Shown: positions 57,705 to 62,310, counted from the first letter of the stretch. The stretch is DNA of 64,000 nt from a virus (IMGVR_UViG_3300044635_002180:52216-116215), one strand, 5' to 3'. Notes: generated by a model not told the origin, from the letters alone. Made by a program: numbers and translations.

Positions 57705-57733
57705 AAAAAAAGGGCTGCTTACGCAGCCCTTTT
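57705..57733 (-). terminator. intrinsic terminator upstream of uvsX
   Basis: GGGCTGC-GTAA-GCAGCCC followed by T7 on the minus strand. Confidence 0.85.
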
Positions 57734-58129: not shown

Positions 58130-59127
58130 TCAACCAAAAAGATCAAATAAATCGGAATACATCTGTTCTGTTGGTTTATGTGCAGGCCACTTAACTGCAG
58201 TATAAAATCTTTCCACCACGGAGAATACAATCTTTTCAAACATTTTCTCGTATGCAGGCTTGAATATGCCATGAAATTCAGTTGGGTAGTAGTATTTAAA
58301 TGCAATGGTCTCTACACCATACTTGTTGGGTGTAGCAATGTACATCCATCTGATTTTATCACCTGACTGAATAGCTTCATATTTTGATATGATGTCAAGC
58401 TTTTTGAGCAATACATTATAGTTGTGAGCAGACTTCACATGCACCGGAGCACCTTTGGGCAATGAAAACTCTTTGGCCTTGCTTGCATGCTTGTCAAGAT
58501 CTTTGATGCCCATGACATATGCTACTTCTTCTGGCTTGAGTGCTTTGAACACATCATATGCTTCATTAACAACAGCATTGGTTTTGATTCTATCGCGTGT
58601 ATCAAGCATTGTTTCAATGATTTTTTTAACGTATGGTTTGATGGCTTTTGGCATAGAAGTTCTCACCACCTCCACACCAACATACTTCCACTTATCACAC
58701 TCAATTCCTTCATCATCCACCACATGTGCAACATATCGCTTCTTTTCTAAAAATAAGCCTTTGTCAATGATGGACTCTCTCTTGAAGACAATTCTAGGAT
58801 CAAGTGAGTTTAGCTCATCTTTGAGCTTGGTATTAATTTGATTGTTTATATAAACATTTAGACCGTCAATAATTTCATGCACCTTGCCATTGACTTTGTT
58901 ATTAATCAACAAAGGTTCATTGTATTTTTTGAGCAGTGGCTCAATGCACAAATACACCGAATCGGTATCACCTGCTACAGCAATATCAGGAAAATTATTA
59001 GTACCTAAAACAGAAGCAGTATATTCTCTTGCTTGAGTTCGAGCAGTCTTAATGATGTACTGACCAGTCAGTGTGATGGATGATGCAATATCATCATCAC
59101 CCAGCGGCGCATTTTTATTGCCCATGT
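58130..59127 (-). CDS. gp43: DNA polymerase B, fragment C exon 2 (palm motif C and thumb)
   Basis: 'ITLTGQ..AGDTDSVY..FKRE..KKRY..GVEVVRTS'. Confidence 0.95.
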
Positions 59128-59367
59128 CATTTATCTTCTACTTTGCTCGCTAGACAAAATACGCTTTTACGCTGCTATACATCGCTGTATAGATGAGACT
59201 ATATCATCACTAAAAGTGTGCCCCGTTTCGGTATGCTTATACCTACCTGCTTGCGCAGTAGTCGTTGAACGTTCGCAAATTATGCGCTTCGCTGCTGATT
59301 GTCTCAGTGAGAGTTTCCAGCAATTAGAGGCATTTGCTTGCTTTTTACAGCAAGGGGCTAAGAGTCA
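59128..59367 (-). ncRNA. group I intron (240 nt, no ORF) in PolB motif B
   Basis: P1 GGGU|UGA..UUAGCCC with U.G at the 5' splice site; P AATTGCTGGAAA, Q AATCAGCAG, R GTTCAACGACTA, S GATATAGTCT; terminal G; splicing restores NSVYG-Y-MGNKNAP. Confidence 0.93.
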
Positions 59368-59479
59368 ACCCGTATACAGAATTAATAAAAATTTTAATGC
59401 ATAATTGCTTTGCATTTAACTGGGTTATTTTGTCTCTCAGATAGCGTGCTCGCTCCTGTAGTTGTTGTTTGTTTATCAT
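59368..59479 (-). CDS. gp43: DNA polymerase B, fragment C exon 1 (MINKQQLQERARYLRDKITQLNAKQLCIKIFINSVYG), not in the ORF track
   Basis: contains motif B KxxxNSxYG; has its own ATG and an upstream TTGATT box. Confidence 0.9.
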
Positions 59480-59543
59480 AAAAATTTATATAGATTAATA
59501 CCTAAAATATAAAAATCAACCACTATAACCATAAATACAGTAT

Positions 59544-59819
59544 ATGGTCAAGACATTTGAAGTTTAAGCATCTTATAGACGGGCACAATATTATGTTACT
59601 CTGCTTGATTGTGATACGGGGAGTGAGCATTCTAAATTTCTTATAGAATGGATAAAAAAATATAGCTACGCGAAAGATGGTATTATGGATAGAATCCGCT
59701 CAGCTGATTTTAAAACTCCGGTAAGCATGCGAAAATGCAAGAAGAATATTGTCGTTTTAAAAGCTGTAAAGAGGAAGCCTACTGAAGAAGAGTATCTGCA
59801 ATTACTATCACTATTTTAA
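59544..59819 (+). pseudogene. antisense 92-codon frame with in-frame TAA at codon 8, between PolB fragments B and C
   Basis: TAAATA-N6-ATG GTC AAG ACA TTT GAA GTT TAA; the same frame then stays open for 83 more codons. Confidence 0.6.
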
Positions 59820-61073
59820 CTGATCTTCAATATTCTTCAATTCCTTTTTAAGCTTCATCATTTCCTTGCGAACAGCAACACGCTCTTTGTAATATTCATC
59901 TACAATCTCTGGTAGAATTCCTTTGACTTTTTGGCTAAACAAAACCTTGGCTTTGGTTATGGCAATTTTTTCCTGATTTACAAATTGTGCAAACTTAGCC
60001 AGTGGCAAGTTAAAAACCTGACCATTGATGTGTTTGATGGTTACACTTTTATCATCTGTATCAATGATGTTACCTACCTTTGTCTCTGGAGACAAATTGA
60101 GACTAATCATGATGTTGGGGTACAGTGAATTAGCATCAAAAGATACAACATTGCTTTGAAAGCCCTCCATGGGCTCTGCAACAAATGCACCCGGATTTTT
60201 ATCACCTTCACCATCACGAACAAATGTAGGCAAGAATTGTGATCTTTGACGAGCACGAATGGCAGCAGTTCCTGTGATTGTAGACAAGGTGCTCATTGCA
60301 TTTTCCATGGTGGTCAGGCCCATGTAAGCCAACATTCTCAGCAGTGGTACATACTGCAATTTTAAATCCATCTTCACAAGCAGTGCAACGTCTTGCAAGT
60401 TATAATCTACAAACAATTGCCAATCTTCTTTTGCTAAGCTTGCAAGATTGGTATTGCCATAATCAACCTTTCTCTCACCCAGTTCAAGTTCTGCAATGTA
60501 ATCGAGTTTATAGCTCTCGCGGTTTGTAAAGCTAAAACGCTTGTAAATATCAATGTAATCAACGCATGAAACTCCGTCAATGTACCAGCGGATTTGCGGC
60601 TTGCCAAATATGCCGCTGTTGAGAGTTCTACAATACACTCTACCAACAGGTGAAAGCTTTGATGAATACTCTTCACTCAAAATATTATTGATTCTGTTGA
60701 TGATGTATGGAATATCAAACCCTGCACTATTCCAACCTGTCAACAAGTCACATTCCAAGCTGCTGAAGAACTCTATAAAATTCACCAACAGTTGGCGCTC
60801 TGTTGCACAATGAACAAACTTCAAGTCACTTCTGTTGTGTTTATAATCAGTTGTACCCCAAGAGAAAAACTGATTGGTCAAACTGTCATGAATGGTAATA
60901 ATGTTGATGGGATGCTTAGCATATTCAGCTGCAGGAAACTCTGTTTGCTGAACATAACAACTGTTATCATAATTAACCCACTGCTGTTTCTCCTCATCCC
61001 ACACTTCATATTCTTCTCGCATATTTTTATTACACGCGAAATCACCCAATTTGATATACTGATACTGTTCCAT
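59811..61073 (-). CDS. gp43: DNA polymerase B, fragment B (exonuclease II/III, palm motif A, first fingers helix)
   Basis: 'TGWNSAGFDIPY', 'SYKLD', 'YNLQDV', 'SFDANSLYP'; ends in coiled coil 'RKEMMKLKKELK'. Confidence 0.93.
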   Translation of the reverse strand: MEQYQYIKLGDFACNKNMREEYEVWDEEKQQWVNYDNSCYVQQTEFPAAEYAKHPINIITIHDSLTNQFFSWGTTDYKHNRSDLKFVHCATERQLLVNFIEFFSSLECDLLTGWNSAGFDIPYIINRINNILSEEYSSKLSPVGRVYCRTLNSGIFGKPQIRWYIDGVSCVDYIDIYKRFSFTNRESYKLDYIAELELGERKVDYGNTNLASLAKEDWQLFVDYNLQDVALLVKMDLKLQYVPLLRMLAYMGLTTMENAMSTLSTITGTAAIRARQRSQFLPTFVRDGEGDKNPGAFVAEPMEGFQSNVVSFDANSLYPNIMISLNLSPETKVGNIIDTDDKSVTIKHINGQVFNLPLAKFAQFVNQEKIAITKAKVLFSQKVKGILPEIVDEYYKERVAVRKEMMKLKKELKNIEDQLK

Positions 61074-61075
61074 AG

Positions 61076-61888
61076 TTATTTGTTGCGCAGGTTTAAAATT
61101 CTTGTTCGTACTTTTGATGATTTTGAATTAATATAGTTTTCAAACTCTTGATCAGACATACACTTAATACGAACTTTCATAATTGACTGTTGCCGTGTCG
61201 CTTTTCCCTTTTTATTATTTGATATATTAATACTTCTCACGGCATGATCAACACATGTTGAATGTAAACTCTTGTTAAGTCGTTGTTGCTTTTCAGCAAC
61301 ATCTAATCCGTTTATATATTCTTTTATTTTTTTAGATCGTTTTAAATTAGATTCTTCACTTTGAATACATCCGCGCCTTGATTGAAAAAAACATTCACGA
61401 CTACACATTGTAGCATATCTTGTTTTCACACGCCTACCACAGTTGTTTCCACATAAAGGCATAGTCATTAATCTCTGCATCTTATTGTGACTGCCACGGA
61501 TTTTTAATTTTTCTGATACTACAGTTTTAATATAATCACTTTTCATAGGGTGATTTTTTGAAAACAACTCTCTAGCACACTTGAATAGCTTTGCATTTAT
61601 TTTTCGCTTATCACTATTATGTGTACACATTCTATTAAATGCAGCTGATAATTTCATAGCTCTTGCAGTGTAAGTAACATCCGCTTCTGCAAGTTTTTGA
61701 TAACCCACTGCTAGGAGGTGATGTAAAACAAAATGCTCTTTTGCTGTAACTTTAACAATATTATCAGCTATATCATTACCACCAAGACACTTGGGTAATA
61801 CATGGTGTCTCTCACAATAGATGCTTTCATCTAAGCATCTGTTTTGGCAATTTATAATAATTTTATCATATACTTTTAAGTAGTTCAT
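61076..61888 (-). CDS. HNH homing endonuclease (MobE-like) inserted between PolB fragments
   Basis: 'YCERHHVLPKCLGGND..NIVKVTAKEHFVLHHLL'; own TAAATA-N5-ATG. Confidence 0.88.
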   Translation of the reverse strand: MNYLKVYDKIIINCQNRCLDESIYCERHHVLPKCLGGNDIADNIVKVTAKEHFVLHHLLAVGYQKLAEADVTYTARAMKLSAAFNRMCTHNSDKRKINAKLFKCARELFSKNHPMKSDYIKTVVSEKLKIRGSHNKMQRLMTMPLCGNNCGRRVKTRYATMCSRECFFQSRRGCIQSEESNLKRSKKIKEYINGLDVAEKQQRLNKSLHSTCVDHAVRSINISNNKKGKATRQQSIMKVRIKCMSDQEFENYINSKSSKVRTRILNLRNK

Positions 61889-61902
61889 AGGAGTATTTAT
61901 CT

Positions 61903-62310
61903 CTATGTCGACCTTTTTTTGCGTATTTTAATCTGATTATCATTTTTATACTTGCTTGTATCCACCTCAATGTCAATCGTAACAACACGCACCGGAAATT
62001 TAGCAAAATCCTCATCCTGGTTGTGTTGCCAAAACATATCAATGAGGTGTTGCTGCACTGGATTAATATTTTCAAACAATCTCTTGCTTCCACACTCTTT
62101 GACAAATCTGCTGCGATCAAATTGTGTCTTGAACGTACGTTTGCGCAATTTGGTATTAAAGATGCTCACATCTTTGCCAGACATATCCTCAAGCATGAGA
62201 TAAGGCTGGTAAGAACTCATGTACGAAATTCTATTACCATTCTCATCCCATGAATATATCTTCATACATTCATCCTGCGGAATATAAACTGCATTTCTGT
62301 ATCCTATCAT
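61903..62310 (-). CDS. gp43: DNA polymerase B, fragment A (N-terminal domain up to the Exo I motif)
   Basis: 'YRN..SWDENGNR..YQPYL..RVVTIDIEV' followed by a non-polymerase tail; start refined to ATG 62310. Confidence 0.88.
   Translation of the reverse strand: MIGYRNAVYIPQDECMKIYSWDENGNRISYMSSYQPYLMLEDMSGKDVSIFNTKLRKRTFKTQFDRSRFVKECGSKRLFENINPVQQHLIDMFWQHNQDEDFAKFPVRVVTIDIEVDTSKYKNDNQIKIRKKRST

Follow-up and report, generated by a model that had tools for sequence, protein, structure and literature searches.

Replicative polymerases are usually single chains. In the Aeromonas phages 25 and 44RR, gene 43 is divided into 43A, an intercistronic region with or without the GIY-YIG gene seg43(25), and a 43B carrying a group IA2 intron devoid of an open reading frame (ORF), and seg43(25) of phage 25 has been proposed to be the partner endonuclease of the ORF-less intron (PMC2988022, PMC2993671); the split gp43 subunits of phage 25 co-purify and are active (PMC2988022). 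MobA elements add conserved terminal extensions, insert recently and patchily and leave fused 'hit-and-run' scars (bioRxiv 10.1101/2022.08.31.505936), and the split NrdA of Aeromonas phage Aeh1 stays active and needs its insertion-derived tails (Friedrich 2007; Crona 2011, PMC3045599). The locus described here is polB, the gene for a family B DNA polymerase, which lies in four coding pieces on the minus strand, at positions 58130-62310, of a stretch of viral DNA of 64,000 nucleotides (nt) (IMGVR_UViG_3300044635_002180:52216-116215, hereafter the window).

This locus quite probably encodes a working three-subunit polymerase of the gp43 type, with a proofreading site formed in trans between fragments A and B and with a third fragment, C, encoded by two exons; we infer from the sequences of the window and its relatives that each cistron is translated and that the products assemble into an active enzyme. 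The family B motifs of T4/RB69 gp43-type polymerases are all present and in order across A, B and C: Exo I, Exo II, Exo III, A, B and C, with membership of the type judged by the patterns DxE, NxxxFD, YxxxD, DxxSLYPS, KxxxNSxYG and DTDS. RB69 gp43 is the best solved relative, both by sequence (3e-47) and, for an uninterrupted relative, by fold.

The interrupted polB gene and its relatives

The window comes from a viral contig of 116 kb in IMG/VR, which has an estimated completeness of 55% and a T4-like gene content (gp46-like, UvsX and polB). The best named relatives of the polymerase, at ~33% identity, belong to Kyanoviridae phages of OM43, SAR11 and Synechococcus, and megablast of the polB region against isolate phages returned no match. 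Ten related IMG/VR loci (L003-L012) were used for comparison. L003 carries one uninterrupted polB of 849 amino acids (aa) with 99-100% protein identity to the window, and polB is likewise uninterrupted in L005 and L007-L012. In L004 (95%) and L006 (77%), A and B are fused and there is no HNH cassette; the fingers split and the intron are present, and the gap at the split is occupied by an undamaged antisense ORF of 293 aa. In DNA alignments with L003, 1015 nt of the window (60942-61956) stand for 6 nt, and 715 nt (59128-59842) stand for 93 nt. Because L003 is uninterrupted, L004 and L006 carry only some of the interruptions and L005 and L007-L012 none, the three interruptions are separate and derived insertions.

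Fragment A (61903-62310, minus strand, as are all coding features below unless stated) comprises 135 aa and holds D-I-E at residues 113-115 (...VVTIDIEV; D113 at 61972-61974 and E115 at 61966-61968), with a TAG stop 19 codons further on. Its first 116 residues (61963-62310), which make up the beginning of the N-terminal domain and the Exo I-bearing first strand of the exonuclease domain, are collinear with the uninterrupted L003 gene at 99% identity and match phrog_262 (DNA polymerase), while the C-terminal tail, DTSKYKNDNQIKIRKKRST, is encoded together with the TAG stop at 61903-61962. The cistrons are tightly packed: the A stop is followed by 12 nt and by the free-standing Mob-type HNH homing-endonuclease gene (61076-61888, 270 aa), and fragment B (59811-61073, 420 aa) starts 2 nt after the TAA of the latter. 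The last 19 residues of A and the first 44 of B, the N-terminal head (60942-61073; YEVWDE...W), are insertion-borne and not polymerase sequence, such that DIEV-YSPD-EFP of L003 is represented in the window by DIEV, the 19-aa tail and a stop, the HNH gene, and the 44-aa head followed by EFP.

The polymerase-derived part of B (59811-60941) covers the rest of the exonuclease domain, the second part of the N-terminal domain, motif A and the first long fingers helix, inside which B ends, and includes Exo II D120, Exo III Y224/D228 and motif A D313. Residues 45-410 are 99.7% identical to L003, and B matches RB69 gp43 as well as Pfam PF03104 and PF00136. At the fingers tip, the loop AKSDDGDVQ of L003 has given way to a helical tail of 10 aa on B, ELKNIEDQLK, after the first fingers helix, and to a helical head of 15 aa on C, MINKQQLQERARYLR. 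A spacer of 331 nt (59480-59810) follows B. Exon 1 of C (59368-59479; 37 codons plus 1 nt) holds the 15-aa head, the second fingers helix and motif B (KIFINSVYG); it matches PF00136 and agrees with L003-L012, and would read unspliced as an ORF of 44 codons (59348-59479). Exon 2 (58130-59127) holds motif C (DTD), the KKRY region and the thumb, and also matches PF00136; its ORF (58130-59125; 331 aa, with motif C D53/D55 at 58961-58969) is 98.8% identical to L003.

The HNH ORF matches the homing endonucleases of phrog_655 at 1e-31, and its motif ExHHxLPKxxGG...N...H aligns to the En domain of group II maturases and to McrA; the protein has no Pfam or NCBIfam match. T4-like phage genes annotated as mobE or Mob-like HNH, some of them beside nrdA or a topoisomerase gene, were retrieved by tblastn with 30-50% identity over the N-terminal part, and scans of viral and metagenome contigs for close relatives of the HNH gene gave only ones of 34-53% identity. 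The cassette shows presence/absence polymorphism, being found in the window and missing from the 99%-identical L003. A TAAATA box (61894-61899), 5 nt upstream of the HNH ATG, resembles a late promoter and would be a leaderless-type start signal. Such boxes occur at most 16 nt from the ATG, usually 5 nt upstream, in 18 of the 49 window ORFs of at least 150 aa, and a Shine-Dalgarno-like motif precedes only two of the 49, a pattern that suggests late promoters giving leaderless or near-leaderless mRNAs in a host not reliant on Shine-Dalgarno pairing; the HNH gene probably has its own late, leaderless-type start. A sigma-70 promoter scan gave no more matches than shuffled sequence.

The idea of an intron or intein within the HNH cassette was dropped, as Rfam searches of 60942-61956 (E up to 1) returned no RNA family and Pfam searches of A and B no intein domain and no Intein_splicing match. 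Identity of the tail and head with an intein was also rejected, since together they amount to only 63 aa, as against at least ~130 aa, and since the module stays in uninterrupted proteins.

The gene in the fingers gap is a remnant on the plus strand (59544-59819), aligned to 7123-8004 of L004 and 7120-8001 of L006. It starts with ATG at 59544, meets TAA at codon 8 and keeps its last 84 codons; compared with the intact 293-aa ORFs, 602 nt are deleted near 59570 and the catalytic part is gone. With TIGR01453, a family of GIY-YIG-type group I intron endonucleases, the intact L006 copy gave a match (E 7e-6) that falls short of the curated cut-off, and tblastn with the L004 copy gave only weak matches, to a 'group I intron endonuclease' and to a NUMOD3 protein; searches of the intact copies found no Pfam match and no solved relative. 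The antisense gene is best interpreted as an endonuclease, now dead, that was once the partner of the ORF-less intron. The position of the fingers split coincides with that of phage 25 and with the boundary between the polymerase subunits annotated in Synechococcus phage S-CREM2 (L001:3638-6581), where A has 487 aa, B has 366 aa and a hypothetical gene of 98 aa lies between them. Dozens of cluster representatives of the '43A type', of ~500 aa, are found among the polymerase matches and indicate that the fingers split is common in environmental T4-like phages.

The ORF-less group I intron (59128-59367, 240 nt) follows NSVYG plus 1 nt and is thereby placed one codon past motif B. It was recognized by Rfam RF00028 with 81.6 bits against a gathering score of 50, over the full length of the model (positions 1-253) and at 59175-59377 of the window. 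The 5' splice site follows U59368 and the last intron base is G59128, giving a predicted ligated exon junction in the DNA of ...TACGGGT|ACATGGGC...; the spliced exons read NSVYGYMGNKNAPLG, exactly as in the uninterrupted homologues among L003-L012, and the spliced fragment C of 369 aa has NSVYGYMGNKNAPLGDDD across the junction, the same as in every uninterrupted homologue. The intron core is near-invariant in the window, L004 and L006, whereas the flanking exons are only 71-88% identical, and RNAalifold found seven pairs kept through changes on both sides, six of them in the 3' hairpin of L006. The near-invariant core and these compensatory pairs lend indirect support to removal of the intron by self-splicing.

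An earlier note, made from the sequence of the window, had described polB motifs in order, broken by three interruptions into four pieces, and every piece was found where it had been placed. Its account of A as ending just past the Exo I DIE and followed by an HNH gene was borne out by the D-I-E at residues 113-115 and the stop 19 codons on; so was its decayed antisense gene after B, in view of the early stop and of the deletion relative to L004 and L006, and its structure for C, namely a 37-codon exon with motif B, a group I intron, and then motif C and the thumb. For B, the content of Exo II, Exo III and motif A and the end in the fingers held, with the refinement that polymerase sequence does not resume directly after the break, the 44-aa head being insertion-borne. 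The Aeromonas fingers split cited there as a precedent is correct and closer than stated, as phage 25 also has an endonuclease gene and an ORF-less intron at nearly the same site.

Tail, head and the candidate mini-domain

The tail of A and the head of B are, as judged from alignments and structure models, halves of one conserved mini-domain of ~55 aa that is cut at the turn of a beta-hairpin, the tail corresponding to strand beta1 and the head to beta2, a helix and beta3-beta4. The A tail is missing from L003-L012, which read DIEVYSPDEFP at this point, and the B head is missing from L003. The 135-aa A with its tail belongs to a 90% cluster of 11 members and occurs on at least 25 contigs, one of them of 228 kb, and P0002, with 71% identity, ends in the same tail. 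The same layout of A tail, HNH homologue and B head recurs in L021 and L025, whose polymerases are ~30% identical: their A fragments end ...KIKIRKKQ or ...MIRIRQK, their B fragments begin ...DYEVYDE...W or ...NYEYYNE...W, and the B start overlaps the HNH stop, which the B start of the window abuts. A HMMER search with B retrieved 12 further 50%-cluster representatives that begin with the head.

In 14 uninterrupted PolBs the tail and head are contiguous and form an insert of ~55-60 aa between Exo I and (G)FP, and P0039 is a fifteenth. In total, at least 15 lineages have the module in split form and at least 14 more, dispersed across the PolB tree, have it without interruption; an HNH gene lies between the tail and head of the split lineages wherever DNA was read. 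In the alignments every A stops and every B starts at the same turn, and the A tail aligns to beta1 of the uninterrupted module. The AlphaFold2 model of the uninterrupted P0021 (mean predicted local distance difference test score, pLDDT, of 84.7) displays the insert as a hairpin (125-130, 133-138), a short helix and a second hairpin (151-154, 159-162), with pLDDT of 76-93, and the break maps to the turn of the first hairpin. When B of the window was modelled alone (mean pLDDT 87; head 73-89), the helix and the second hairpin formed and the orphan beta2 did not.

The distribution of the module was followed on a FastTree phylogeny of the polymerase core (152 rows of 50%-cluster representatives), on which the branches are long and state counts are rough. 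The module changes state 23 times on this tree; the lowest value in 200 label shuffles was also 23, and the shuffles averaged 26.9. Within the 29 module rows, split and uninterrupted states are intermingled and change 10 times. This patchy distribution fits the pattern of a mobile element combined with 'hit-and-run' loss of the endonuclease.

Weak phmmer and BLAST alignments suggested that the B head might have arisen as a degenerate copy of the Exo I region; a profile-profile comparison gave this a probability of 0.2, and the idea was dropped, the head aligning instead to the uninterrupted module. A search of the ESM Atlas for the mini-domain gave scores below 0.9 and was uninformative, Foldseek with the whole module-bearing model returned only the RB69 and T4 polymerases, and tblastn with a 70-aa head found nothing in 50,697 isolate phage records, a search of low sensitivity that is no proof of absence.

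Whether the mini-domain acts as a clasp between A and B is, to judge from its conservation and predicted fold, an evenly balanced question. It is tentatively proposed, with slightly more doubt than confidence, that the mini-domain travels with a Mob-type endonuclease as a self-complementing, non-covalent protein staple and persists as a scar domain once the endonuclease is lost. If so, it would represent a third general way, beside introns and inteins, to neutralize the splitting of an essential gene; an exonuclease active site would be built from two chains, and an in-frame 'scar domain' would now be scattered through environmental T4-like polymerases.

A probable three-subunit enzyme and its alternatives

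In the proposed mechanism, three independent selfish elements would have invaded a single essential polB, and the enzyme would still be made from three polypeptides. The HNH cassette would have entered a hairpin just after the Exo I strand, inserted together with the ~55-aa mini-domain, which it cuts at the beta1-beta2 turn so that A would end with beta1 and B begin with the remainder. Re-association of A and B would most likely proceed through the re-forming mini-domain, which probably clips the two back together, and through entry of the Exo I strand of A into the exonuclease-domain sheet of B, and the proofreading site would then be spread over both chains. The second element would account for the cut at the fingers tip, as in phage 25, with an endonuclease gene that is dead here; the helical extensions on both halves may allow the two long fingers helices to pair as a coiled coil. 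The third, the ORF-less intron, would splice itself out to give the 369-aa fragment C.

The residues required for catalysis have been kept throughout. All A fragments and uninterrupted proteins in the alignment have D-I-E, although the A fragments share a mutual identity of only 18-21%, and none of the B proteins, the 15 split ones included, departs from the residues of Exo II, Exo III and motif A. Of 71 substitutions relative to L003, 64 are synonymous and 7 nonsynonymous, and the ratio of nonsynonymous to synonymous substitution rates (dN/dS) is 0.012 for A, 0.023 for B and 0.031 for exon 2. No other PF00136 (PolB) match was found anywhere in the 116-kb contig, and a single polB locus is present in each of two relatives with complete or nearly complete genomes. 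The earlier note's statement that the catalytic motifs are intact and not pseudogene-like is upheld by the invariance across distant split lineages and by the low dN/dS values, and its proposal of three polypeptides, with splicing of the mRNA for one, fits the tightly packed separate cistrons and the intron junctions that restore NSVYGYMGNKNAPLG. The developments that it named as damaging to this proposal were looked for as well: the same A with its tail is present on the contigs mentioned above, from JGI, ENA, Logan and NCBI, which speaks against an assembly error; no second polB came to light; and a single spliced mRNA joining A to B finds no footing in the cassette, which has neither intron nor intein features.

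Several points weigh against a working three-chain enzyme. The contig is incomplete, and a second polymerase gene could conceivably lie elsewhere in the genome. With only 7 nonsynonymous changes relative to L003 the split could be recent, in which case the low dN/dS says little about selection after the split in the lineage of the window; as L003 is too close for such selection to be measured, it is the numerous diverged lineages with the split that carry the argument. No Shine-Dalgarno motif is found at any of the polymerase cistrons, and initiation signals are unreadable since such motifs are rare throughout the phage. The clasp role is argued from alignment and from models of single chains, and the tails of Aeh1 NrdA served higher-order assembly and not heterodimer formation (PMC3045599).

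It is unlikely that the split gene is a recent pseudogene of a defective or parasitic phage, complemented by co-infecting phages of the L003 type and spread by homing endonucleases despite its cost. An intact, 99%-identical allele does exist in nature in the form of L003, the divergence is small enough that decay might not show yet, the contig is only partly complete, and Mob elements may be mildly deleterious according to Manning and Atkins (bioRxiv 10.1101/2022.08.31.505936); against this, the Exo I split recurs in the 15 or more lineages, down to ~30% polymerase identity, with invariant catalytic residues, most substitutions relative to L003 are synonymous, the A fragment is widespread and includes a contig of 228 kb, and the tail and head are kept at the protein level, as illustrated by a CGC/AGA swap of arginine codons. 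That A is a dispensable leftover, with B and C alone, devoid of Exo I and of the initial N-terminal-domain segment, working as a proofreading-deficient mutator polymerase, is quite improbable given that A fragments retain D-I-E despite their divergence from each other, that A shows the lowest dN/dS, and that Exo II and Exo III are invariant in all split B proteins, which would be unexpected if proofreading were lost. This possibility draws on the confident model of B alone and on the behaviour of T4, in which Exo I mutants of gp43 are viable mutators.

Skipping of the HNH cassette by an unrecognized intron or by ribosomal bypassing would make A and B one chain and the enzyme a two-subunit one. 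The T4 gene 60 bypass cassette is associated with Mob elements (bioRxiv 10.1101/2022.08.31.505936), and not every intron is covered by Rfam models, but such an event appears very improbable: the cassette has no RNA family match; only ~200 nt lie outside the HNH ORF, all of them conserved coding sequence that is translated within uninterrupted polymerases elsewhere; the gap exceeds 800 nt, compared with 50 nt in gene 60; and the B start abuts or overlaps the HNH stop at all three loci examined (the window, L021 and L025). The record being a metagenomic contig, the interruptions might also be assembly artefacts, chimeras or sequencing errors, an explanation that is scarcely credible in the face of an identical A architecture in many independent assemblies from four sources and of the independent occurrence of the fingers-plus-intron block in L004 and L006 and of the HNH block in L021 and L025.

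Around the gene, synonymous divergence between the window and L003 (57000-63600) is mosaic: dS is 0.28 for A and 0.21 for exon 2, and 0.05 for B, which is flanked by the two insertion sites. Such a mosaic suggests that recombination has had its breakpoints at the mobile elements. Between uvsX and a small gene downstream of polB there is a strong hairpin resembling a bidirectional terminator (57708-57733; 11 pairs, 6 of them G-C).

A three-chain polymerase sharing its proofreading site would, if true, test how far an essential enzyme tolerates fragmentation, and its tail/head mini-domain offers a concrete candidate for a natural tag by which split proteins re-associate. The loci available for comparison form an unusually full set, made up of a 99%-identical uninterrupted allele, intermediates that carry one element or two, the module in both split and re-fused form over a deep tree, and relatives in which inteins occupy two further sites; this set shows the life cycle of homing elements within one gene, from invasion through endonuclease decay to 'hit-and-run' scars. 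Annotation pipelines will label such polymerases as broken or overlook the 37-codon exon.

Comparison with known systems

Phage 25, as read from record NC_008208, resembles the window in that its gene 43 is divided within the fingers, between motifs A and B, that the gap contains an endonuclease gene and that motif B is directly followed by an ORF-less group I intron. Its intron has ~330 nt and follows NSLYGAL, two codons further on than the 240-nt intron described here. Unlike seg43(25), the endonuclease gene of this locus is antisense, unrelated in sequence and, in the window, deleted, and the window has the third break, at Exo I, which phage 25 does not.

For that break, the closest parallel is the T4 arrangement of gene 39, mobA and gene 60, which concerns the large subunit of topoisomerase II and in which, as here, a free-standing HNH gene of the Mob family occupies a fixed site in an essential replication gene, a metal-binding active site is split over two ORFs with conserved C- and N-terminal extensions, and the insertion is recent and patchy, with loss of the endonuclease and re-fusion of the ORFs with their extensions in frame. 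In the present case the element targets PolB just after Exo I instead of the Toprim domain and has no cassette for translational bypassing, and its two extensions demonstrably make up one small domain, predicted to fold, that is interrupted at the turn of a hairpin. The nrdA-a/mobE/nrdA-b arrangement of Aeromonas phage Aeh1 is similar in that an HNH gene of the Mob type splits an essential enzyme across its active site, with tails on both fragments; the host gene differs, and function was tested for Aeh1, whereas polB of the window is known from sequence alone.

Split inteins (Dassa et al. 2009, PMC2677866) also place a free-standing endonuclease gene between the halves of an inserted, re-associating module. 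The module considered here has ~55 aa, lacks intein motifs and splicing residues and is retained in the mature protein when uninterrupted, so that re-association would be non-covalent. A true fractured gene of the kind described by Dassa et al. is present in motif C of L006 (8417-10925), where an N-terminal intein half follows DTDS, the C-terminal half ends ...VHN|S, and a separate 332-aa endonuclease ORF lies between them (phrog_22677, with C-terminal REase_MTES_1575 and DUF559, Vsr-like, matches). In a further set of relatives (P0018, P0023, P0028, P0033, P0039, P0042-P0044, P0048, P0052 and P0055), an insertion of ~450-500 aa lies at the Exo II region, near residues 107-114 of B, with Intein_splicing or LAGLIDADG (Pfam) matches in the two that were checked. 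Counting the Exo I cassette, the Exo II insertion, the split in the fingers, the intron after motif B and the intein in motif C, mobile elements occupy at least five sites in the polymerase family as sampled by these sequences.

Searches of the full-text literature turned up neither a PolB divided at Exo I nor a gp43 in three pieces. Exo I as a target and the combination of all three elements appear to be new; each type of element is already known, from MobA in the topoisomerase genes, MobE in NrdA and gene 43 of phage 25.

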